This document shows positions 24,405 through 36,106 of a stretch of DNA of 64,000 nucleotides, piece by piece. Source of the DNA: a bacterium. Its GTDB lineage: Bacteria; UBA8248. A model generated the notes under the pieces. The model had not been told where the DNA came from. It worked only from the letters and a program-made list of their open reading frames with translations, and ran no database searches. How positions within the stretch are numbered: position 1 is the stretch's first letter; the number at the start of each line of letters is the position of its first letter. The translations under genes and the position numbers were made by a program. The stretch lies in assembly GCA_965200245.1 (NCBI GenBank), contig CBDATS010000005.1, positions 128,001-192,000 of the forward strand, given 5' to 3'.

Positions 24405-24458
24405 CTTGTTCGCCTTTGAAACGTGAAAAGTTTTTCTGCCTCTCTAAAAAAGCGCTTT

Positions 24459-24488
24459 AGGATAATCCCGCAAACCCATAAAAGTCAA
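24459..24488 (-). promoter_or_regulatory. Putative sigma70 promoter of the aroF leader
   Basis: TTGACT-18 nt-TATCCT on the minus strand. Confidence 0.55.
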
Positions 24489-24518
24489 CCCATTGGACGC
24501 GGAAATTTTCGGTATTTT

Positions 24519-25683
24519 TCAGGTTTTTCGCACCACTTCCGTGAGCCTGCGCCGATCCGGTCCGGACGGCCTGAGCAACCTGCCTCCCAGCACCACGTGC
24601 GTTGCCTCCAGCATCCTCTGTCCCGTGCGCCGTTCTCACATGGCATCCTCGAAAGCAAACCGACCCTCACGCATCCGGAATACGGCGACATCGCCCCGCG
24701 CGCCTTTTCGGAGCGTCCCCACTTCGCCTTTCAAGCCAATCCATTCCGCCGCCGTCTGCGTGCTGAGCCGCACCACCTCTGCAAGGGGGAAGCCCAGGGC
24801 CAGGAACTTGCTCATAAGACTCGGGAAATCACACACAGGGCCATTGATGCAATGCGTATGGAGGTCTGTGCTGAGATTTCCCGGCATGAGGCCCTGTTCC
24901 ATGGCGCGTTCCATGATCTCGAAACTGAAGCTCGAACGCCCGTGGGCAACGTCGAGTAACACCCCTGAGTCTCTCGCCTCCTACACCGCGCGGCGCACCC
25001 GACCCCGTGCGTCGAGTATGTTTTCCCTGCGACCGTGAAACGCATGCGTCAGAACGTCGCCCGGGCGGAGGCGTTTGAGGATGCTGGGCAAAGAAGTGGG
25101 CGTATCACCCACATGGACCATGAGAGGGACTTTCAGGAATTCCGCCGCCTCGAGTGCCGCATCCAGCGGCTTCGATCCGCTGCGTTCCACCACGTTGTTG
25201 CTCAGGCGCACCTTCATGCCAATCAGGTATTTTCGATGCTTTTGGTAGCACTCCACTGCCCTGTCCACGCGCAGTGCGCGCATATCGATGTTCTCGCCAA
25301 GGCCGTCTATCAGGAGTCCGCCTTCCGAGATGTTGAGATACGCGCGCACCGTCGGACGCGCCTTCTCCAGGAACCACTCCTGAAAACCGGGATATGTCTG
25401 TGCGCCTGCGCTGCCCGTATCGACCGCAGTCGTGACGCCGCGCGACAGCATGGCGGCCTCGAGGTTCACCCCGTAGTGCGTAATGCCCTCGTAAAAATGG
25501 CAATGGAGGTCAACCAGGCCGGGTGTTACAACTTTTCCCCGTGCGTTGAGCGTCTGCCTGCCCCCCCGGTTCGATGTGGGGATCCACCCGCCGCACACGA
25601 CCCTGTGCTATCTCGACATCCATCGTCCCTTCCAGACCTTGGGAGGGATCGAGCACGTATCCACCGCGAATCACGAGGTCCAT
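24519..25683 (-). pseudogene. Amidohydrolase/deacetylase-family metallohydrolase (dihydroorotase-like), disrupted
   Basis: AGGAGG RBS, MDLVIRGG.VLDP, PGLVDLHCH, LMVHVG, LTHAFHG and STDLH. Frameshift at the G7 run (25561-25567), in-frame TAG at 24981-24983 and in-frame TGA at 24636-24638. Confidence 0.85.
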
Positions 25684-26106
25684 ACACTGGCCTCCTACAA
25701 TGAAACCGGGTGCGAACCTACAGGTTCAGCAAGAACCGGAGCAAAAAAAGTAGCTTCGGGGAATTATTCCCCCCAGAAGCGATGAGACGCAATCGGCCGT
25801 GGAACTGGCTTCGAAATGATTCAAATGCAAACATCATCCATTAGGAACGCACCAGCGCAGGCATCTGGAGCATCTCCCGGGAAAATCCATGCAAATCGAA
25901 ACGGGGAACTTGTCTGGCCGATACCCGTGGACAAGACAAACAAGATGGGCTGGAACGTCTCGAAAAAACGGAAAACATCGCAAATTCGAAGGGCGCCGCA
26001 GACAACGGGATGGCCCGTGGATTCGAGAGACACCGAAGCCGGACATCAAAAACCCGTATCGTGAGAAGGGTTGGCCGAGACCCTTGATCGCATCGCCACA
26101 CAGCGA

Positions 26107-26360
26107 AATCCGTACGAAATTCTGCACACGGAGAAGACAATACACGCTCCCACAAAACTGCCGACTCAAAAACCGAAGCGGCAGACAGGAACAGGATTGA
26201 CAGGTTGGCGAACCGCGATGCACAGGGAGAAACAAGGGTCTGCAATGTTACGAATAACGTGTTCAGAATACGCTGGGGCGATTACCGGGTTCTGTACGCT
26301 CTCTGCAACGGTTTCAGAATACCCATTCCCGACATCGAGAATAGAGGGGTGTCTATAGCC
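26107..26360 (+). pseudogene. RelE/StbE-type toxin relic
   Basis: 26262-26297 translates as FRIRWGDYRVLY, followed by ...DIENRG. The upstream part (PYEILHTEK) is in another frame and there is no valid start. Confidence 0.6.
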
Positions 26361-26655
26361 TATAGAAGAACAGACCCCTGAGAAGAATGTTCACCTCATC
26401 TTTCATCCACTTCTTGAAAATCTGCGTCCTATCCTCCAATATGCCATGAAAATCTTGCATCAATCTTTCTCCGAAGTGAAAGAGAAGGAAATGACCCGCG
26501 GAAATGGGTATTGCGGGTGGAATGCTTCCGTTCCGGGAAAACCGGTAACCCCGAAGAGGGCGGCTGATCAACATGTCCAAAACCGATTTTTCACATGGCT
26601 TTCCCAAGCCTGCCTGTCCAGTTCCCCTGCAAAATCAAACCACCGGAGTCAAGAA

Positions 26656-27828
26656 ATGAGCCTGCAAACAGAAACTCAACTGCAATTCGATCTCGACGAA
26701 ACGCAAAAGATGCTTCGCCAGACGGTGCGCGAACTCTCGGAGCGCTACATCGCCCCGCGCGCCGCCGACATCGACGAGTACGAGGAATACCCCGAGGACA
26801 TCTACCAACTCCAGAAAGAACACGGCCTGCTCGGCATCTTCTTCCCCGAGGAATACGGGGGTGGCGGCATGGGCTTTCTGGGTGGCTGCGTCGCCATTGA
26901 GGAAATCGCGCGCGTTTGCTCGAATTCGCCGCTGTTCATCGTGCTCAACATGCTCTCAAGCCGCGTCATCGATCTGAGCGGAACGCAGGAGCAGAAAGAC
27001 CACTACATGGCGGGCCTCGCGAAAGGAGAACTCAGAGGTTCCTACGCGCTCACCGAACCCCACGCGGGATCGGATGCGGGCAACATCCGCACGCGCGCCG
27101 TCAAGGAGGGCGACGAATGGGTCATCAACGGCACCAAGTGCTTCTGCACGGGACCCGACAAGGCGGATTTCATCACCGTCGCCGCCAAGACCGACGCCCA
27201 TGCGGGCACGCGCGGTATCACCTATTACATCGTGCCCACAGATTCGCCGGGCTTCAGCATCGCCAAGCACGAACGCAAGATGGGGATGCGGGGTATCGCG
27301 ACCTGCATGCTCAACCTCGACAACGTGGCCGTCCCGCTTGAGAACCAGGTGGGCGAATTGAACGGGGGCTTCAAGACCGCGATGATCGGCTTCAACCAGA
27401 TGCGGCCGGCCATCGGATCGCGCGCGGTAGGTCTGGCACAGGGTTGCCTCGACTACGCGTCCAACTACGCCAAGGAACGTGAGGCTTTCGGCAAGCCCAT
27501 CGCCCAGCATCAGGCCGTGCAGTTCATGCTTGCGGACATGTTCATGGACATCGAGGCAGCGAGGCTGCTCGTCTACCGCGCGGCTGCTCTTGTGGACGCG
27601 GGCCAAATCGGCAAGGAGAATGCCCGGTATTTCTCGACGGCCAAGACCTACGCGGCCGACATGGCGATGAAGTGCGCGATAGACAGCATCCAGGTTCTTG
27701 GCGGGGCAGGCTACATGAAGGATCACCCACTCGAGCGTTTCATGCGCGACGCCAAGCAGATCCAAATCGTCGAGGGAACGAGCCAGATTCAGCGGATGAT
27801 CATCGCCCGGAACCTGCTCGGCCTCTAG
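26656..27828 (+). CDS. Acyl-CoA dehydrogenase (paralogue 1)
   Basis: ALTEPHAGSD, INGTKCF, KMGMRG, REAFGKPI..HQAVQFMLADM and QIVEGTSQIQR (catalytic Glu kept). Confidence 0.95.
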   Translation: MSLQTETQLQFDLDETQKMLRQTVRELSERYIAPRAADIDEYEEYPEDIYQLQKEHGLLGIFFPEEYGGGGMGFLGGCVAIEEIARVCSNSPLFIVLNMLSSRVIDLSGTQEQKDHYMAGLAKGELRGSYALTEPHAGSDAGNIRTRAVKEGDEWVINGTKCFCTGPDKADFITVAAKTDAHAGTRGITYYIVPTDSPGFSIAKHERKMGMRGIATCMLNLDNVAVPLENQVGELNGGFKTAMIGFNQMRPAIGSRAVGLAQGCLDYASNYAKEREAFGKPIAQHQAVQFMLADMFMDIEAARLLVYRAAALVDAGQIGKENARYFSTAKTYAADMAMKCAIDSIQVLGGAGYMKDHPLERFMRDAKQIQIVEGTSQIQRMIIARNLLGL

Positions 27829-27840
27829 GAGCGGGCTGAG

Positions 27841-29007
27841 GTGAAGGGAAGCCAGAATCCTGCAGGCACGTTCGAACTCTCCCCGGCCCAGCGGATGCTG
27901 GCCGATACGATCTATGAATTGAGCCGCCGACACATCGCACCGCGTGCCGGTGAGACGGACGAGAACAACGAATACCCGGAAGACGTCTTCGCACTTCTCA
28001 AATCCCACGATCTGCTCGGCCTCTACATCCCGGAAACCTACGGCGGGGCGGGCCTGGGAATTCTGGAAACCTGCGTCGCCATCGAGCAGATGGCGCGTTT
28101 TTGCTCGAACTCCCCTCTTTTCTTCTCCGTCCACTTGCTCGCCACGCGGCCCGTCGCCATCGGCGGAAGCGAGGTGCAAATGCACACCTATCTCGGCGGT
28201 GTAGCCCGTGGCGAATTACGGCCCGCCTTTTCGCTCACCGAGCCGAACGCAGGTTCCGACGCTGCGAACATATCCACACGCGCCGAACGTGACGGGGATT
28301 CGTGGGTCATCAACGGCCAGAAATGCTATTGCACGGGGGCGAGCGTGGCGGACTTCATCACCGTAGCGGCGAAGACCGAACCCGACAAAGGGGCAAGGGG
28401 CATCTCCTTCTTCAACGTTCCCAAGGGCGGGTTTCGCGTGGGACGTCATGAGCGGAAGATGGGAATGCGGGGTATTCCGACGTGTGAGGTCTTTCTCCAA
28501 AACTCGCGCGTACCTCTTGAGAACATGATCGGTGAACGAGGCCAGGGTTTCAAGACCGCCATGCTCGGCTTCAACCAGGCGCGACCCGCCATAGGTGCGC
28601 GCGGAGTGGGTCTGGCACAGGGGTGTCTCGATTACGCCTCGAACTACGCGAAGGAGCGCGAGGCATTCGGCAAGTCCATCGCACAGCACCAGGCCGTGCA
28701 GTTCATGCTCGCCGACATGTTCATGGAAACCGAGGCGGCCCGTATGCTCGTTTACCGTGCCGCCGCCATGGTGGATAATGGGCGTTACCGGAAAGAAGAT
28801 GTGCATTTCATCTGCGCCGCGAAATGCTACGCCACCGATGTCGCCATGAAGGTCGCCGTGGATGGCGTTCAGGTGCTCGGCGGCGCGGGCTACATGAAGG
28901 ACCACCCGATCGAGCGGTTCATGAGAGACGCCAAGCAGTTGCAGATTATCGAGGGGACCAACCAGATTCAGCGCATGGTCATCGCTCAAAATTTACTGGA
29001 ATTATAG
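27841..29007 (+). CDS. Acyl-CoA dehydrogenase (paralogue 2)
   Basis: SLTEPNAGSD, INGQKCY, KMGMRG and QIIEGTNQIQR; closely similar to paralogue 1. Confidence 0.95.
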   Translation: MKGSQNPAGTFELSPAQRMLADTIYELSRRHIAPRAGETDENNEYPEDVFALLKSHDLLGLYIPETYGGAGLGILETCVAIEQMARFCSNSPLFFSVHLLATRPVAIGGSEVQMHTYLGGVARGELRPAFSLTEPNAGSDAANISTRAERDGDSWVINGQKCYCTGASVADFITVAAKTEPDKGARGISFFNVPKGGFRVGRHERKMGMRGIPTCEVFLQNSRVPLENMIGERGQGFKTAMLGFNQARPAIGARGVGLAQGCLDYASNYAKEREAFGKSIAQHQAVQFMLADMFMETEAARMLVYRAAAMVDNGRYRKEDVHFICAAKCYATDVAMKVAVDGVQVLGGAGYMKDHPIERFMRDAKQLQIIEGTNQIQRMVIAQNLLEL

Positions 29008-29034
29008 TTCAAGTCCCTCGTCACGGAGACCGAA

Positions 29035-29643
29035 ATGAGCCAGATGATTGAAATCCTGCAACCCACCTCCTTCATTCGCGCGGGCGATCACCCCCTGGCG
29101 GAGCGGCCCGAAGATCTGGGCGGACTTACAATCGGCTTCTTCCACAACAACAAGCCCAACGCCGACGTTCTACTCGAACGGATCGAGGAGCTTTTCGCAA
29201 AAGAAGACGAGACGCTGCGCTTCGTGCGCTGGGGAAAGCCAAACCCCACCCTGCCCGAAGATCGGATTGAGGAATTCATCGAACAGGTGGATGTGGCCGT
29301 CTGCGCGGTGGGTGACTGAGGGAGTTGTACGTCATGGAGTATCCATGACTCGGTGGAGATGGAAAAAGCAGGCATTCCGACGGCCACGTTTTGTTCCAGT
29401 GAATTCTCGGCCCTGGGGGCAAACGAGAGAACGGCCCTGGGGATGCCTGGCCTCCCGATAGTCGTCGTGATGCATCCGGTGGGAGGCATAGCACCGGGAG
29501 AGGCGCGCGCTTTGGGCGATGGTGCGGTGGAGGAGATTCGGCACATCCTCACGAGCGACGCCGAGACTCTCAGGAAAGAATACAGAGCGCGCGAATACGT
29601 CCCGCCCCGAAAGGCGGTGCGCCACAAGACCCTCTTCGGATAG
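29035..29643 (+). CDS. Predicted UGSC-family selenoprotein (202 aa; TGA 29317-29319 read as Sec)
   Basis: ORFs 29035..29319 and 29353..29643 are in frame and join as AVGD-U-GSCTSWSIHD. Family-like motifs NNKPNAD..L and EKAGIPT. SECIS-like hairpin follows the TGA. Confidence 0.88.
29331..29349 (+). promoter_or_regulatory. Bacterial SECIS-like hairpin
   Basis: GTCATGGA-GTA-TCCATGAC, a perfect 8-bp stem with G in the apical loop, starting 11 nt after the TGA. Confidence 0.75.
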
Positions 29644-29656
29644 GCGGGCTTCCGAT

Positions 29657-30736
29657 ATGAGCGACCATTCTCAGGAAAATCTTGCGTTCGGGAGCGAGCG
29701 GGTGAAGGTGCGCGACACGCCCGAGGCGATGGCGCGACTACTTGAGGCGAGAGGCTGGGGCGACGGCCTTCCCGCTGTTCCCCCCACGCCCGATCGCGTC
29801 GCCCGGATGGTGGAGGGCGCAGGCCTCGCGCCTGATGAAGAAATCGGGCTCATGCCCCCTCGCCAGGGCGTCATCACGGTGAAAGCCCTCGCCGTGAACG
29901 CCGTGATGGCAGGCTGTCTACCGGCATACATGCCCGTTCTGTTGGCGGCAGCCCGCGCGGTGCTCGAACCCGGGTTCTCGCTCCACGCCATTCAGGCGAC
30001 GACCCACCCCGTAGCACCCCTCATCATCGTGAACGGCCCCGTGGTCGAAGAAATCGGCCTGAACGCCGAATATGGATGCTTCGCCCCCGGCAACCGGGCG
30101 AACGCGACGATTGGCCGTGCGATGCGCCTGACGCTTCTGAACATCGGCGGTGCGAGCCCCGGCATCCTGGACCGCGCCACACAGGGGTCGCCCGCCAAAT
30201 ACGCATTCTGCATCGCCGAGAACGAGGCCGCCTCCCCTTGGGAACCCCTCCACGTCGAGCGCGGTTTTCCGCCAGAGGAGAGCACCGTGACGCTCGTGGG
30301 CTGCGAGGGACCTCACAACATCAACGATCACGTGAGCCACACGGCAGAGGGAATTCTCGCCACCGCTGCCGACACCATGTCCGTCATGGGGTGCAACAAT
30401 TTCTATCTTCGTGGCGAACCCGTTCTCGCCCTCGGACCCGAGCACGCAGCAACCATCGCAGGAGACGGCCTTGCGAAGGCGGACGTAAAGCGGAGAATCT
30501 TCCAGCTCGCCCGTAAGCCTGTGCGGCAACTGAAGCGTGGCGCCATGTGGGGAATGCAGACCTGGGATGAGAAAATAGCGAACAACGAGGGCGACGATGA
30601 TTTCGAGATTCCCCTTCTCGACAGGCCCGAGGACCTGCTCCTCATCATCGCGGGCGGCGCCGGCAAACACTCCTGCTGCATGCCCACTTTCGGACCAACG
30701 CGCTCGGTGACGCGAAAGATCGAAGTCGCAGGATGA
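29657..30736 (+). CDS. Hypothetical protein of the type found next to UGSC genes
   Basis: Motifs GWGDGLPAVPPT..RV..M, AVNAVMAGC.P.YMPV, PGNRANATIGRA and AENE..SPWEP; starts 13 nt after the selenoprotein stop. Confidence 0.8.
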   Translation: MSDHSQENLAFGSERVKVRDTPEAMARLLEARGWGDGLPAVPPTPDRVARMVEGAGLAPDEEIGLMPPRQGVITVKALAVNAVMAGCLPAYMPVLLAAARAVLEPGFSLHAIQATTHPVAPLIIVNGPVVEEIGLNAEYGCFAPGNRANATIGRAMRLTLLNIGGASPGILDRATQGSPAKYAFCIAENEAASPWEPLHVERGFPPEESTVTLVGCEGPHNINDHVSHTAEGILATAADTMSVMGCNNFYLRGEPVLALGPEHAATIAGDGLAKADVKRRIFQLARKPVRQLKRGAMWGMQTWDEKIANNEGDDDFEIPLLDRPEDLLLIIAGGAGKHSCCMPTFGPTRSVTRKIEVAG

Positions 30737-30739
30737 TGG

Positions 30740-31240
30740 TCATGTTTTCATCAACTGTATTCTTGAACCCGACCAGTCCGAGCGGTAGCCCGTTGACGAA
30801 CAAGACAATATCCGGAAGGCGTTTCTGTTTGTTATCGACGACGGTGAACTGATTGACCGCCAGCCAGTCGTTGTTTGCGGGGCCGTCGAAATCCACAGCG
30901 CAGGCCGACACGTCGCGGACCGCGTCGTTATCGTCACGGTGTTCAACCGTGATCCCATGATGAGCATCCGGTGGAACGAGCGGTTACGAACCTCCAGCGT
31001 CGTCCCTTCCGGGCGCGTCAATTGGCCGAACACATCCTGATGGGCGGAGGCGGCAGAACAGGATTGAGGTGGGCCATTTCATCGCAAGGCGTCCTTCAAG
31101 AATCACGTCGCTATAATCAGCACGCTCCGCGCGCAGCACATCGGGGCAACACCGACATCGTGGGTGATATTCCAGCCGAGGTTCTCAAGCCATTCGAGCA
31201 GGATGATTTCAACGTCGGATCCGGTTAAGCGGCGCGCCCT
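30740..31240 (-). pseudogene. hsdR: Type I restriction endonuclease HsdR, N-terminal relic
   Basis: Fragments in different frames: SDVEIILLEWLENLGW, LTRPEGTTLEVRNRSFHRML and VDFDGPANNDWLAVNQFTV...PDIVLFVNGLPL. The helicase part is absent. Confidence 0.85.
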
Positions 31241-31282
31241 TGGTCAACTCCGAGACAACGTTGGCGTCGCGGAAATATCCAC

Positions 31283-31567
31283 TCATTCGGACTCGTCGTC
31301 CGTGAACGGGATTTCCCTACCGGAACTTCTCGTACCCGGGCTCTCCAGATTCACCCCACGCGGCATGTTCTCGACCAGCCATCGTCCCATCGATTTACGG
31401 GGCGGTCTTTTCCAATACCACTCCCCGGCGGACACGACCACAAAAGGTCGCCTCATCCCGATATGTTGGGGCCCCTCCTCCTCTGCGAGGCGCAACACTG
31501 CGGACAGACGCGCCTTGGCCTCCGCAACGGTCCATACTCGATGGGGCCTAGAATGCCGTTCCGCCAT
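31283..31567 (-). CDS. Phd/YefM-family antitoxin (no toxin partner)
   Basis: WTVAEAKARLSAVLRLAEEEGPQHI...VVVS Phd signature. Confidence 0.8.
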   Translation of the reverse strand: MAERHSRPHRVWTVAEAKARLSAVLRLAEEEGPQHIGMRRPFVVVSAGEWYWKRPPRKSMGRWLVENMPRGVNLESPGTRSSGREIPFTDDESE

Positions 31568-31668
31568 AATCCCCTCAAGCAAAGTAATATAGTCCCGTAC
31601 AGGCTATACTTAGATCGACGTCAAGACGTGAACGTACCGAACGTGACGCGTCGGTCGGAAATTGTGCC

Positions 31669-31704
31669 TCAAGTGATGTTTGCGTCGAGAAGATAACCGG
31701 TCAT
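31669..31704 (-). pseudogene. DUF4411/PIN-like nuclease stub (MTGYLLDANIT*)
   Basis: Its ATG overlaps the ImmA/IrrE stop (ATGA). YLLDAN is the typical first strand of PIN-fold proteins. Ends after 11 codons. Confidence 0.6.
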
Positions 31705-32852
31705 TTCACCACCTCGACTTCACGCCCAAGATTGTTAAAGGTTTCGGTCCTGGAAACTCCAAGCATCCGAAAGGCGTCTCGATAGAGCGTTTGTCCTTCG
31801 AGCGTACTCACTACAAGCGCGCGGGCGAACCGCCGCCCGACCCGTGCGACCGTCGTGCGATAGAAGTCGCCACCGCTGTCCGCTCGGACGAGTTTCCGCA
31901 GACGTTCGTTCTCTTGCGTCCAGGCGGTATCGAAGCGCTCGCGAGTTAGCCAGCCTGCGTCAAGCAGTCGTCGCAGAATGACCAGCGTGCTGACCTTGAA
32001 AGTCCGCGCCAAGCGGAACAGGAAGTTGTGGGGCGGCTCGTCGTCGCGAAGCCTGGCGCGAATATCTGCAAGCGGTACGAGAAACTCTGCCGCCACCGCG
32101 TTGCACCACACCTCCTCGCGGCAGAATCCCGTATTCAGTACGGCCCCAAGATTCGACAAGGCAGAGGCACCGAGCCAGATATGCGCAAGTTCGTGTGCGA
32201 GCGTGAACATCTGCGCCGCCTTCGTGTCCTTGCCGTTGACGAAGATCAGCGGCGCAAGCGGATCGCACAGCGCGAAACCGCGAAACTCGGCGGGATCGAG
32301 ACGCCGGCGGTTGTTGCTCATCACGATACCGCTCACCATGACGAGCACACCGGCCTCGTTGGCCTGGCGGATGAACAAACGCAAAGCGTCGTTCCAGTTC
32401 GGACACTTACGGCGGGCGTCAAGACTGAAACCTAGGGTCTCTCGTATCTGGGTCGCGACAGTTTCAGGGAACGTCCGGATAGAGGCACTACCGACGAAGC
32501 TGCGTTCCGGCTCGCCGGCGACGCGGGCGAAATCCCGATACCAGCCCTGCCGTTCCCGGCAGGCGTAAATCGTGTCCAGCATATTCGGGCTGGGTCGTGT
32601 GACCGCATGACCGGCAAAGGTTCGGAAATCCGGAATGGGCACGGATTCCTCCGGCGGCTCCGAGAGGAACAGACAACCGACCGGCGCATGGACGGCACGT
32701 GCAAACGCCTCCACCTGCCTCAGGGTGGGCTGCTCCTGGCCGGCCTCCCACACAGGCAGCTTTTTGAATTTCACCGCCAGATCTCTCTGTGCAACCCCGG
32801 CGCGCTCGCGCGCCCAGCCGAGGAGTTCGGGATTGACGGGGATTCGGATCAT
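31701..32852 (-). CDS. XRE-HTH + ImmA/IrrE-family zinc metallopeptidase
   Basis: N-terminal HTH (LGWARERAG...WEAG..QPTLRQ), EFRGFAL, FTLAHELAHIW (HExxH) and EVWCNAVAAEFL. Confidence 0.9.
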   Translation of the reverse strand: MIRIPVNPELLGWARERAGVAQRDLAVKFKKLPVWEAGQEQPTLRQVEAFARAVHAPVGCLFLSEPPEESVPIPDFRTFAGHAVTRPSPNMLDTIYACRERQGWYRDFARVAGEPERSFVGSASIRTFPETVATQIRETLGFSLDARRKCPNWNDALRLFIRQANEAGVLVMVSGIVMSNNRRRLDPAEFRGFALCDPLAPLIFVNGKDTKAAQMFTLAHELAHIWLGASALSNLGAVLNTGFCREEVWCNAVAAEFLVPLADIRARLRDDEPPHNFLFRLARTFKVSTLVILRRLLDAGWLTRERFDTAWTQENERLRKLVRADSGGDFYRTTVARVGRRFARALVVSTLEGQTLYRDAFRMLGVSRTETFNNLGREVEVVK

Positions 32853-33065
32853 GGGCGCTCTCCCGCCAGACTCGCCAACGCAGCCTTCAGGACTGGAAGC
32901 AGACCTTGGCGGTGTGTTCATCCGGTGTGAAGCCTGAGGCCATTTGCTGGTATGGGTGGGTGTAGTTTCGGAAATCGCGCAAGCCGTGACTGAACTTCTT
33001 GATGCCAAGTTCCCCAACGCCGATCTTGCACGCATAGTCAATCAACTACGCAAGTCTCCATTCGT
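32853..33065 (-). pseudogene. C-terminal relic of a HEPN-like protein
   Basis: Translates as ...LIDYACKIG...KKFSHGLRDFRNYTHPYQQMASGFTPDEHTAKVCFQ (RxxxH-type motif), with stops, a frameshift and no N-terminus. Confidence 0.5.
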
Positions 33066-33220: not shown

Positions 33221-33586
33221 TCAGACTTCTTCAATGGACTCGACCGACCCTCCTGATATGCGATGGTTCGACGTGCCACAAATCAATACCACATAATCTT
33301 TCTCGATCTCATGGTAAAACCGCTCCGGCAAGCGTGCCCAGTCTCTCGCCTCCACCAGAAAAGGAATGTTCGACTCCCGCACCGCCTCCTCGAAATCCAC
33401 CAATTGATCGATGGGAATTTCCGCAAGGTCCGGGCCACGCAGGACCAGATCGAGATCGCTTCCATCATGGCTTCGCCCGGTCACGCGGCTTCCATAGGCC
33501 CATACCTCCACACCTGGCAGATGTTCCCGCAACAGGGCATCGAGTTCGGCGCGATGCCGGGGCTTCAGGTGCAGCCGTTCAGCCAT
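33221..33586 (-). CDS. Minimal nucleotidyltransferase (MNT antitoxin)
   Basis: VWAYGSRVTG....SDLDLV and ESNIPFLVE; overlaps the HEPN gene end. Confidence 0.88.
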   Translation of the reverse strand: MAERLHLKPRHRAELDALLREHLPGVEVWAYGSRVTGRSHDGSDLDLVLRGPDLAEIPIDQLVDFEEAVRESNIPFLVEARDWARLPERFYHEIEKDYVVLICGTSNHRISGGSVESIEEV

Positions 33587-34004
33587 CCTTACCCGCCTCG
33601 ATAATATCGGCCAGCGCCTTCGCATCGACGATGAATGTCGGCAGCAACTTCAGCGTGGCCTCGGCAAACTTCTCACCATAGTCGTGCCCGGTGTCGTTGC
33701 GATTGTCGCGGTATCGTAGCCATCGCTCCGCCGTCTCCACGTCGATCAGCCCGTGCTTCGCGGCATGGCGAAACAGATCCCTGAAGACCAGGCGGTCAGC
33801 CTGTCGATTGCTGGCGAAGTAGGCCGCAAGACGCTTGCGCAATAGCTTGCCACCCTGTTCCAGAATCAGTTCGAACTACTTGACGCAGGCGGCACGGTAG
33901 ACGTCATAGAGGAAATCATCCGATTCGCCATGGACGCCGATCCCCTCCAGAGCACGTTCCAGCGCACCGATACAGCGACGCAGGAATGTTGTGTCGATAC
34001 TCAC
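33579..34004 (-). pseudogene. HEPN toxin / nucleotidyltransferase substrate-binding protein with nonsense codon
   Basis: Two in-frame ORFs join as AACVK*FELILEQ (TAG 33876-33878, probably from GAG). HEPN motif RNDTGHDY is present. Confidence 0.85.
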
Positions 34005-34924: not shown

Positions 34925-36106
34925 ATGATCGAGCGGAAGATTACCCCTTGTCTGGTGGAATTGTTTCAACAATATCCGTTCGTCACGGTGACCGGACCGA
35001 GACAGTCCGGCAAAACCACCCTTTGTCGCGCGGCCTTTCCGAATCTGGAATACGTCAACCTCGAGGCACCGGATCAGCGGGAATTCGCAGAAACCGACCC
35101 CCGGGGCTTCCTTTCCCGCCTGGGCGACGGCGCCGTCCTGGACGAGATCCAGCGCGTCCCTGAACTCCTGTCCTATCTTCAGGTCATGGCGGACGAAGTG
35201 GGACAAAACGGCCTCTTCGTGCTGACGGGCAGCGAGCAGTTCCGGCTTTCCGATGCTATCAGCCAGTCACTTGCCGGTCGCACGGCGCTACTGCGCCTGT
35301 TACCGTTTTCACTCGCCGAAAGGCGACAGGCGGGCGCGAGCGAAGGGGTCGACAACATTCTCTACTCCGGCTTCTATCCCCGGATTCACGACCAAGGGCT
35401 CGAACCCCGACAAGCGCTCGGCGACTATTTCGAAACCTATGTGGAACGCGATGTGCGCCGGATCGGGGAAATCCGCAATCTCTCCAGTTTCCGTCGATTC
35501 GTCCGTCTGTGCGCCGGCCGTGTGGGACAACTGATCAATCTATCGGCCCTGGGTGCGGATGCCGGCGTTTCCCACACCACGGTACGCCACTGGTTGACAA
35601 TTCTTGAAGCCAGCTACATCGTTTTCCAGCTTCCGCCGTTTTTCGCGAATGTCCGCAAGCGGCTGGTCAAGTCGCCCAAGCTTTACTTCCACGATGTCGG
35701 GCTGGCAAGTCATCTCATCGGCATCGAGCATGCCGGGCAGTTGGGCACCCATCCGCTCCGGGGAGCGCTGTTCGAGAACGCCGTCGTCGCAGAGGTCCTC
35801 AAGCACCGTTTCAACCAGGGGCGCCGTCCCAACCTGTCCTTCTTCCGCGACGTCAGGGGACTCGAGTGCGACCTTCTCTACGAAAACGGCGACGGGGTGG
35901 GCGTCATCGAAGTCAAGTCCGGCGCGACGGTCGCATCCGACTGGTTCGATGCCTTTCACCGGGTGGCGAAGACATTGCCCCAAATCATCCTCAGAGCGGT
36001 CGTCTACGGCGGTTCGGATCGGCAGTCCCGCCGGGATGGTGAGGTGATTCCCCTGGTCGCGCTGGGCGAAGTGCTCGATCAATTCGACGGGCGCAAACCA
36101 ACCTGA
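34925..36106 (+). CDS. AAA+ ATPase (AAA_14 + DUF4143)
   Basis: GPRQSGKTT, LDEIQRVP, LTGS, SLAGR, KSPKLYFHDVG and a nuclease-like tail ECDLL...IEVKS. Confidence 0.92.
   Translation: MIERKITPCLVELFQQYPFVTVTGPRQSGKTTLCRAAFPNLEYVNLEAPDQREFAETDPRGFLSRLGDGAVLDEIQRVPELLSYLQVMADEVGQNGLFVLTGSEQFRLSDAISQSLAGRTALLRLLPFSLAERRQAGASEGVDNILYSGFYPRIHDQGLEPRQALGDYFETYVERDVRRIGEIRNLSSFRRFVRLCAGRVGQLINLSALGADAGVSHTTVRHWLTILEASYIVFQLPPFFANVRKRLVKSPKLYFHDVGLASHLIGIEHAGQLGTHPLRGALFENAVVAEVLKHRFNQGRRPNLSFFRDVRGLECDLLYENGDGVGVIEVKSGATVASDWFDAFHRVAKTLPQIILRAVVYGGSDRQSRRDGEVIPLVALGEVLDQFDGRKPT

Follow-up and report, generated by a model that had tools for sequence, protein, structure and literature searches.

The closest described counterparts of the system analyzed here are the glycine, sarcosine, betaine and D-proline reductases, in which GrdB or PrdB is the substrate-specific selenoprotein subunit and which are re-reduced via thioredoxin (Trx) and thioredoxin reductase (TrxR) or via a dedicated reductase. 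Here we examine a putative operon in a 64,000-nucleotide (nt) stretch of genomic DNA from a bacterium of the UBA8248 lineage (contig CBDATS010000005.1, positions 128,001 to 192,000), referred to throughout as the window. Two genes for acyl-coenzyme A (CoA) dehydrogenases (ACADs) precede the gene for a selenoprotein of the UGSC family and a gene for a protein of an uncharacterized family, hereafter the partner. The four intact genes look like an operon that combines an ordinary flavin ACAD, duplicated in the genus, with a putative two-subunit selenoenzyme. The reading that we favor, by a modest balance of probability, is that UGSC and its partner constitute a selenocysteine (Sec)-dependent reductase, widespread in environmental bacteria and fed by TrxR or thioredoxin, whose product would be passed in this lineage to the ACADs.

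UGSC-containing proteins were counted among the most abundant aquatic selenoproteins in the Global Ocean Sampling (GOS) survey, with 255 Sec and 21 Cys forms (PMC2398784), and a later study places them at ~8% of ocean-metagenome selenoprotein genes (PMC9402790). In the same 2008 text the function of the family is given as unknown, with a 'likely Trx-like fold' and one 'UGSC/Unknown_1' fusion (PMC2398784); another report likewise calls UGSC abundant and of unknown function (PMC1976440), and surveys from 2022 and 2026 still list it as uncharacterized (PMC9312934, PMC13188914). These sources agree with a first-pass annotation of the window, made from the DNA letters alone, which had stated that UGSC proteins have no assigned function. 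The Haft 2022 preprint does not mention UGSC, and within the limited collection that was searched by full text, where the family is treated in selenoproteome surveys and reviews, there is no report of homology to GrdB or PrdB, of a near-universal pairing, of TrxR fusions or of an ACAD operon. The partner family is likely the 'Unknown_1' of the 2008 GOS fusion.

The elements of the operon are listed below in window coordinates. Labels beginning with G, L, C and P denote genomes, loci, contigs and proteins, G000 being the genome of the window.

26656–27828, + strand: ACAD1, 390 amino acids (aa), an acyl-CoA dehydrogenase like the short-chain and medium-chain types (SCAD/MCAD)
27841–29007, + strand: ACAD2, 388 aa, GTG start, a tandem duplicate of ACAD1
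29035–29643, + strand: UGSC-family selenoprotein gene, 202 aa, motif G-D-U-G-S-C at residues 93–98
29317–29319, + strand: TGA codon for Sec (U95), the sole in-frame TGA of the UGSC gene
29331–29349, + strand: hairpin resembling a Sec insertion sequence (SECIS), 8-bp stem and 3-nt loop, starting 14 nt past the UGA
29657–30736, + strand: partner gene, 359 aa, uncharacterized family

All four genes lie on the + strand, with intergenic gaps of 12 nt between ACAD1 and ACAD2, 27 nt between ACAD2 and UGSC and 13 nt between UGSC and partner, and the first-pass annotation had the coordinates of these co-oriented intact genes right. GGAG-type ribosome-binding sites stand upstream of ACAD1, ACAD2 and UGSC. 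A consensus scan of the cluster found no internal promoter-like or terminator-like site above shuffles, and an Rfam scan of the window gave no match at gathering thresholds. As had also been noted, the window contains no gene for electron-transfer flavoprotein (ETF); such genes are present elsewhere in the genome, on C15 and C2.

The UGSC gene is recognized by two family models, NF041046 (136.5 bits, cut-off 125) and PF24696 (159.4 bits against a cut-off of 25, E 1.2e-46), and each of the seven UGSC genes of the genome (7/7) carries exactly one TGA. For comparison beyond this genome we scanned one genome per GTDB species with the partner, which returned at least 551 relatives, and examined the best 80 loci, to which all counts of foreign loci refer. 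Among 82 UGSC hits at these 80 loci the motif holds U in 73, Cys in 3 and an unreadable position in 6, so that 73 of the 76 readable motifs have TGA. A tRNA-SeC (tca) is encoded at C8:357340-357436. Folded as a single sequence, the hairpin behind the TGA is not significant (-12.7 kcal/mol, z -0.77), and the case for a SECIS therefore comes from the comparative test of pairing and covariation and not from the single fold. Across 42 UGSC genes, 93.5% of cells in the hairpin pair, compared with 85.4% in shuffles and 18–47% in slid controls; the covariation score is 0.273 (versus 0.139), reached by 0 of 500 shuffles, and four of the eight hairpin pairs show compensatory changes. Together, the TGA motifs, the covarying hairpin and the tRNA-SeC support Sec decoding and, judged from sequence, mark UGSC as a genuine selenoprotein. 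One UGSC paralogue of the genome (C4:1133735-1134277, the F locus, L020) reads G-H-U-G-S-S, with Sec but no Cys three residues further on, and scores 113 bits, under the family cut-off; an enoyl-CoA hydratase (ECH) gene and a partner gene flank it, and an amino-acid ABC transporter comes next.

The 80 foreign loci span Acidimicrobiales, Binatia, Rokubacteria/Methylomirabilota, Dehalococcoidia, Alpha-, Beta- and Gammaproteobacteria, Acidobacteriota and others. Candidate cultivable carriers are Robertmurraya sp. 2P01SA (L064) and Hyphomonas neptunium, the latter named in PMC1976440. A UGSC gene stands on the same strand within 1.2 kb of the partner gene at 71 of them, and within 300 bp at 65, with UGSC first in 56 cases and the partner first in 19. 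At 17 foreign loci the two are fused in frame, interrupted by the Sec codon only. Among the 150 best representative partner homologues, 54 carry UGSC sequence in the same chain, and 34 of those 54 chains hold only the part beyond the Sec codon, as is expected of gene calls that restart behind a TGA. The two families are inherited together as well: of 41 related genomes, 27 have both and the remaining 14 have neither. Adjacency, fusion and co-inheritance thus make UGSC and partner one functional unit, and at the genomic level they establish the pair as a predicted two-subunit enzyme, as the first-pass annotation had suggested for the selenoprotein and its neighbor; the adjacency, the fusions, the co-occurrence and the shared chains all bear that suggestion out. 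The genome of the window has a UGSC::partner fusion of its own, a 569-aa frame with the motif V-U-G-G-C (C4:1246527-1248233, - strand, L017) that adjoins a second partner gene, a PF12831 FAD oxidoreductase and a solute-binding protein.

The partner belongs to a large family without annotation. Neither Pfam nor NCBIfam holds a match for it, even at E≤1, or for any of the four family members that we tried, and 7972 of 8000 scored candidates match it as homologues at E≤0.001. Of 120 homologues listed, none has a Pfam domain and every named one is a 'hypothetical protein', and at 50% identity the partner matches 5570 representative clusters. The AlphaFold2 (AF2) model of the partner is confident (pLDDT 89.9, pTM 0.90). 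Compared with folds in the Protein Data Bank (PDB) it shows no clear relative (best Foldseek E 4e-4 at a TM-score of 0.22; best VIA Z 5.5 over 89 residues, none at Z≥8); a sequence search of the PDB returned nothing at E≤10, and a search of the ESM Atlas only unnamed or auto-named clusters. The fold matches that do appear, at noise level, are to class I fumarase, Toblerone-fold hydrolases and RidA/chorismate-mutase-like C-terminal domains. Against the GrdE-like protein of the genome the partner aligns with a probability of 0.1%, and PF09338 is absent from it at E≤1.

Across 46 sequences, the invariant residues of the partner include D36-G-L-P39, A85-G-C87, R147, R154, R157 and E188, a pattern that would fit a site with a single essential Cys and an anion-binding Arg cluster, and we propose that the partner is the substrate-binding catalytic subunit. 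The structural look-alikes allow a different reading, in which the Sec/Cys pair of UGSC and Cys87 of the partner, with Cys185 or His263, bind a metal or Fe-S cluster at the interface of a non-redox hydro-lyase or isomerase. In its favor are the resemblances to the class I fumarase alpha chain 7xky_A (Foldseek E 4e-4, VIA Z 4.5), to L-serine dehydratase and CyuA (Z 3.5–3.6) and to Toblerone-fold cyclic-amide hydrolases (E 0.03–0.3), together with PrpD-family genes and amidohydrolases that recur nearby. These matches, however, fall in the noise range (TM-score 0.17–0.26, Z below 6), invariance in the partner extends to a single Cys, the F-locus UGSC protein has no second Cys, and the TrxR fusions with intact CxxC motifs described below argue for thiol-based electron transfer, so we regard a metal or Fe-S enzyme as very unlikely.

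The 3.68-Mb genome holds 13 partner genes and seven UGSC genes; four of the partner genes form a run near one UGSC gene, and two have no UGSC gene nearby. One partner paralogue (C2:258822-259817, L023), which follows genes for the E1 alpha, E1 beta and E2 components of a 2-oxoacid dehydrogenase, contains a TGA that was considered as a further Sec codon and rejected: it aligns with the Trp of a P-G-W motif of its relatives ~15 residues from the end and is probably a nonsense change or the end of a slightly shortened protein.

To place UGSC itself, we compared its AF2 model (pLDDT 91.6) with known folds. The model is a five-stranded parallel flavodoxin-like alpha/beta domain in which helix 96–111 has the Sec at its N-terminus, and it speaks against the thioredoxin fold suggested earlier (PMC2398784). 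Its top structural matches are flavodoxin-like or Rossmann-like (2v9c_A, E 1.2e-5; VIA Z up to 10.9) and must be read as generic, since 206 chains reach a VIA Z≥8; a PDB sequence search with UGSC returned nothing meaningful. A more specific relationship emerges from profile comparison. When 50 UGSC sequences were aligned by hhalign with GRDB-family proteins, using a template profile of only four sequences, the GRDB-family genes of the genome itself, the match had a probability of 91.6% and E 8e-7 over 81 columns and placed Sec on Sec. The alignment also pairs E-x-x-G-I-P-T of UGSC with E-x-x-G-I-A-T, and H-P-x-G with Y-P-F-G. The GrdB model TIGR01917 detects the same region at a low level (residues 80–167, 16.7 bits against a cut-off of 602, E 0.0027). 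PF07355 (GRDB) gave no match on UGSC at E≤0.01, and a genome-wide search with it returned four other genes and no UGSC. The Sec half of UGSC is accordingly best described, by profile comparison, as a distant homologue of the GrdB/PrdB Sec region that lies below the thresholds of that family.

The genome also encodes more conventional relatives. At C5:575890-578649, outside the window (loci L147–L150), a GrdE-like gene (PF09338, E 9e-105) adjoins a full-length GrdB-like gene, and three short PrdB-like genes begin at C8:244897, C4:784641 and C4:1532073. All four GRDB-family genes stop at a TGA and continue in frame, reading U-G-T-G, U-P-L-C, U-P-L-C and U-G-L-C, and they are therefore probably selenoproteins clipped by ordinary calling of open reading frames (ORFs).

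Evidence for an electron source comes from the 47 long partner homologues of 630–2000 aa, 30 of which contain TrxR Pfam domains. Of the other 17, three carry UGSC and four fibronectin-III, one each has an amidohydrolase, AMP-binding or CMD/AhpD-like domain or a weak aminotransferase match, and six have nothing recognizable; within the set P0133–P0168, the single fusions are to Amidohydro_2 (P0157), AMP-binding (P0163) and CMD/AhpD-like (P0166) domains. The partner::TrxR fusions measure ~660–730 aa and occur in several lineages, one of them labeled Candidatus Dormibacteraeota by its source. Four TrxR fusions that we inspected retain CATC, CAVC or CADC motifs, and the domains occur in both orders. 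On TIGR01292 a fused TrxR domain scores 317 bits and a neighboring TrxR-like gene 308 bits (cut-off 343). A TrxR-like gene is also the immediate same-strand neighbor at five of the 80 loci, spread over four phyla, in Dehalococcoidales, Burkholderiales, Acidobacteriota and two Alphaproteobacteria. The 700-aa frames in G007 and G015, considered as further TrxR fusions, have no TrxR similarity and were set aside. TrxR fusions and neighbors with an intact CxxC thus point to a reductase fed by NAD(P)H via a dithiol flavoprotein, and the UxxC motif combined with the TrxR fusions lends weight to the redox-active unit envisaged by the first-pass annotation.

The two ACADs are of an ordinary kind. Each contains the N-terminal, middle and C-terminal ACAD domains (PF02771, PF02770 and PF00441), and they are 64% identical to each other. 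The nearest solved chain to ACAD1 is 3pfd_A (E 5.8e-103), and neither protein reaches any NCBIfam equivalog model: the top matches of ACAD1 are acryloyl-CoA reductase AcrC (390.5 bits, cut-off 640) and cyclohexane-1-carbonyl-CoA dehydrogenase (367 bits, cut-off 650), and on both ACADs the 3-sulfinopropanoyl-CoA desulfinase model scores 280–283 bits (cut-off 600) and the PimC/PimD models 101–123 bits (cut-offs 624–653). Both proteins end in (I/V)-E-G-T-(S/N)-Q-I-Q, in which we take (I/V)-E-G-T to present the catalytic Glu of SCAD/MCAD-type dehydrogenases. A heteromeric alpha2beta2 enzyme of the FadE26/27 or PimC/D type was considered and rejected, given the 64% identity, the same C-terminal motif in both proteins and the absence of ACAD2 from several orthologous loci. 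ACAD1 is the most conserved gene of the operon, at 90–97% identity within the genus and 76–80% outside it. G008 (L135) has no ACAD2 and G002 (L138) only part of it, and the gene is also lacking at the single-ACAD loci of G024, L158 and L159, which identifies it as a genus-level duplicate and leaves ACAD1-UGSC-partner as the conserved core.

This core is stable within the clade. Within the genus, 14 species were surveyed and all of them (14/14) have ACAD1, UGSC and partner in synteny, with ACAD2 full-length in 12, missing in 1 and partial in 1. A second genus of the family (G024) has a single ACAD, then UGSC, then partner; a 616-aa frame there that suggested an ACAD-UGSC fusion was rejected because a stop and a frame change separate the two. 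On four metagenome contigs (L156–L159) whose partner is 69–89% identical, an ACAD lies directly upstream in 4/4, as twins in two and singly in two, and the operon with ACAD1 keeps gaps of 12–31 nt down to 65–72% identity of UGSC and partner. Within the genome of the window, where the ACAD, ECH and CoA-transferase families amount to 67 genes in 3.68 Mb, four of nine pair loci abut an ACAD, ECH or CoA-transferase III gene at 49 bp or less. Across the 80 foreign loci, an ACAD is found within 3 kb at five and any of four CoA-enzyme families at 14. On gene order, then, the ACAD link holds within this clade and does not extend to the family at large. The ACAD linkage put forward in the first-pass annotation accordingly stands for the 14 congeneric species, a sister genus and all four contigs, and not for the wider family (5/80 loci); a neighborhood analysis of the kind proposed there reveals no enrichment of ACAD or CoA-enzyme genes across phyla, and the linkage is also not unique to this genome, one of the circumstances named there as refuting it, being common to the 14 species, the sister genus and the contigs.

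These data bear on a reading in which the four proteins form a dedicated flavin/selenium module, UGSC and partner acting on a CoA-linked, possibly organosulfur substrate or shuttling electrons with the twin ACADs. The operon is tight and conserved in the clade, other UGSC/partner loci of the genome abut ECH, ACAD and CoA-transferase genes, and 3-sulfinopropanoyl-CoA desulfinase is among the ACAD look-alikes, at 280–283 bits under its cut-off of 600, all of which would suit such a module. We nevertheless judge it decidedly unlikely: most of the family lacks the ACAD link, an ACAD standing within 3 kb at five of 80 loci and the density being flat with distance; the redox companion that recurs is TrxR and not ACAD or ETF; the (I/V)-E-G-T motif, in the role we assume for it, is kept in both ACADs and speaks against an enzyme of the desulfinase type; two species have lost or truncated ACAD2, which is therefore dispensable; and the operon has no sulfur-metabolism gene. 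Nothing points to the organosulfur substrate raised in the first-pass annotation, and its suggestion that electrons pass to the ACADs finds no support where the recurrent companion is a TrxR-type flavoprotein.

The surroundings of the pair differ between loci. The immediate neighbor is a TctC carboxylate-binding protein at 11 of the 80 loci and a CoA-transferase III at three. Other variable neighbors are short-chain dehydrogenases/reductases, luciferase-like monooxygenases, PrpD-family proteins, TauD, amidohydrolases including DUF6282, S15 and M17 peptidases, an aminotransferase and a branched-chain 2-oxoacid dehydrogenase complex. The neighbors suggest a catabolic enzyme whose members have diversified in substrate among organic acids or amino-acid derivatives, with one of them tied to an ACAD.

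The same variability could instead be taken as a sign of a TrxR-fed reductase with a general task in thiol/selenol redox or detoxification, be it repair or the reduction of peroxides, electrophiles or metalloids; the ACADs would then lie beside it by a chance of gene order peculiar to the lineage, without metabolic coupling. UxxC together with TrxR fusions does resemble AhpF/AhpC-type modules, one fusion is CMD/AhpD-like (P0166), and selenoproteome surveys place UGSC among redox proteins (PMC2398784, PMC13188914). However, 13 partner and seven UGSC genes in a 3.7-Mb genome fit a substrate-diversified catabolic enzyme better, as do the transporter, CoA-enzyme, amidohydrolase, peptidase and aminotransferase neighbors, and the ACAD1 operon retains its gaps of 12–31 nt down to 65% identity. 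We therefore consider a general redox or detoxification role unlikely.

For the Trx-fed reductase that we favor, a plausible cycle can be outlined. NAD(P)H would reduce a TrxR-type flavoprotein; since the operon has no TrxR, the housekeeping Trx/TrxR would serve here. The Trx system would then reduce the U95-x-x-C98 selenenylsulfide of UGSC, and the resulting selenolate would act on a substrate held by the partner, in which Cys87 and the Arg147/Arg154/Arg157 cluster may bind and activate a carboxylate or acyl-CoA. The substrate would take up two electrons in this reaction and, most likely, lose a substituent adjacent to a carbonyl by reduction, as with GrdB; we infer this chemistry, reductive C-X cleavage as opposed to other thiol/selenol redox, from the relationships set out above. 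The partner, expanded to 13 paralogues alongside seven UGSC genes, would set substrate specificity, and the product or its CoA ester could enter beta-oxidation through ACAD1/ACAD2 with the ETF encoded elsewhere in the genome.

Several observations weigh against this proposal. The F-locus UGSC paralogue, with U-G-S-S, has no counterpart of the proposed resolving Cys. The homology to GrdB spans only ~80 residues and UGSC falls under the GRDB thresholds, and the partner is unlike the pyruvoyl subunit that GrdB/PrdB chemistry needs (0.1%), so that a different chemistry is quite possible. The operon contains no TrxR, CoA ligase or CoA transferase, and the one TrxR that our query retrieved is 54 kb away from the closest pair. 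Elsewhere, CoA-enzyme genes are no denser beside the pair than 7.5–10 kb away (0.37 per 10 kb at 0–2.5 kb and 0.44–0.48 further out), and the ACADs that do lie nearby are 25–38% identical to the ACAD2 query and hence not orthologues.

The DNA on both sides of the operon is decayed, as the first-pass annotation had recognized; an amidohydrolase pseudogene upstream and a broken VapC-like repeat downstream account for it. The flanking features are as follows.

~24444–25720, - strand: amidohydrolase pseudogene, outside the operon and divergent from ACAD1
31701–33041: IrrE/M78-peptidase gene
33221–33625: nucleotidyltransferase gene
34925–36106: DUF4143 ATPase gene

The amidohydrolase survives as Amidohydro_1 pieces. 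It has a TAG at 24981–24983 where 14/14 orthologues read TGG, a second in-frame TGA near 24636 that is read through by an orthologue, and an N-terminal frameshift near 25600. A conserved programmed frameshift was considered as the cause of the split gene and discarded, since both pieces are in one frame and the TAG occurs only in this genome. Relatives in the genus and G024 keep an intact, syntenic copy; L158 and L159 lack the gene, which places it outside the conserved core. Between amidohydrolase and ACAD1, the 1056-bp spacer at 25600–26655 contains neither a convincing ORF nor a sequence repeated elsewhere in the genome; its positions 451–738 (~290 bp) are ~74% conserved in several species of the genus, and others have only ~300 bp there. 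Downstream, the 964 bp at 30737–31700 are repeated at C4:42326-46292 with 73–86% identity, and their VapC-like frames are broken by stops; the repeat also holds a 99-aa frame without a Pfam match. No part of this downstream region is common to the 14 orthologous loci.

UGSC has been without a function since ~2005–2008, and the partner has no annotation across its 5570 representative clusters. The present analysis offers a testable frame for both: an obligatory partner, a probable TrxR-type electron source and an evolutionary tie to GrdB/PrdB. The ACAD operon narrows the search for a substrate to compounds that end as acyl-CoAs, and a partner with a confident model and no PDB relative is a good target for structure determination. 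Extending this frame, we tentatively raise the possibility, which we think rather doubtful at present, of a new class of selenium-dependent reductases operating outside the Stickland niche, with a TrxR-type feeder, a partner fold unseen in solved structures and a GrdB-like reductive cleavage, without a pyruvoyl cofactor, of a substituent adjacent to a carboxyl or thioester; the partner paralogues would form a repertoire of specificities for the degradation of organic acids and amino-acid derivatives, one of which would in this lineage prepare a blocked acyl chain for beta-oxidation. If true, the reading as a new-class reductase would assign a role to an orphan selenoprotein family that ranks among the most abundant in aquatic microbes.

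Compared with known systems, the operon combines familiar and divergent features. The UGSC protein of the window belongs to the same family as the UGSC of selenoproteome surveys (NF041046/PF24696), and differs from the description given there in that its model is flavodoxin-like where a thioredoxin-like fold had been suggested. ACAD1 and ACAD2 share the three-domain architecture of SCAD/MCAD-type enzymes such as Bcd, AcrC and cyclohexanecarboxyl-CoA dehydrogenase, and find their solved relatives there (3pfd_A, 7w0j_A, 5lnx_A, 5ol2_C and MCAD, at E 1e-84 to 6e-103); unlike those types they match no equivalog, and the twin appears to be a recent duplication and not an alpha2beta2 assembly of distinct subunits. 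Partner homologues that are fused to a full TrxR with a C-A-T-C-D-type motif, or that lie beside one, recall AhpF-type TrxR modules (TIGR01292), whereas the client here would be a protein of unknown fold with a selenoprotein in place of a peroxiredoxin or thioredoxin, and the operon of the window itself has no TrxR gene. The nearest parallel is with GrdB and PrdB. As in those proteins, the Sec of UGSC stands in a U-x-x-C motif that opens a helix immediately behind a beta-strand; farther along the chain come a strand with E-x-x-G-I-(P/A)-T and a turn with (H/Y)-P-x-G, and each protein is one of two subunits, for UGSC by genomic evidence. In contrast to GrdB and PrdB, UGSC measures ~180–200 aa with an N-terminal half of its own, and its partner is unrelated to the pyruvoyl proenzymes GrdE and PrdA. 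UGSC and its partner occur mostly in lineages such as Betaproteobacteria, Dehalococcoidia, Acidimicrobiales, Rokubacteria and Binatia, and less in Stickland fermenters.

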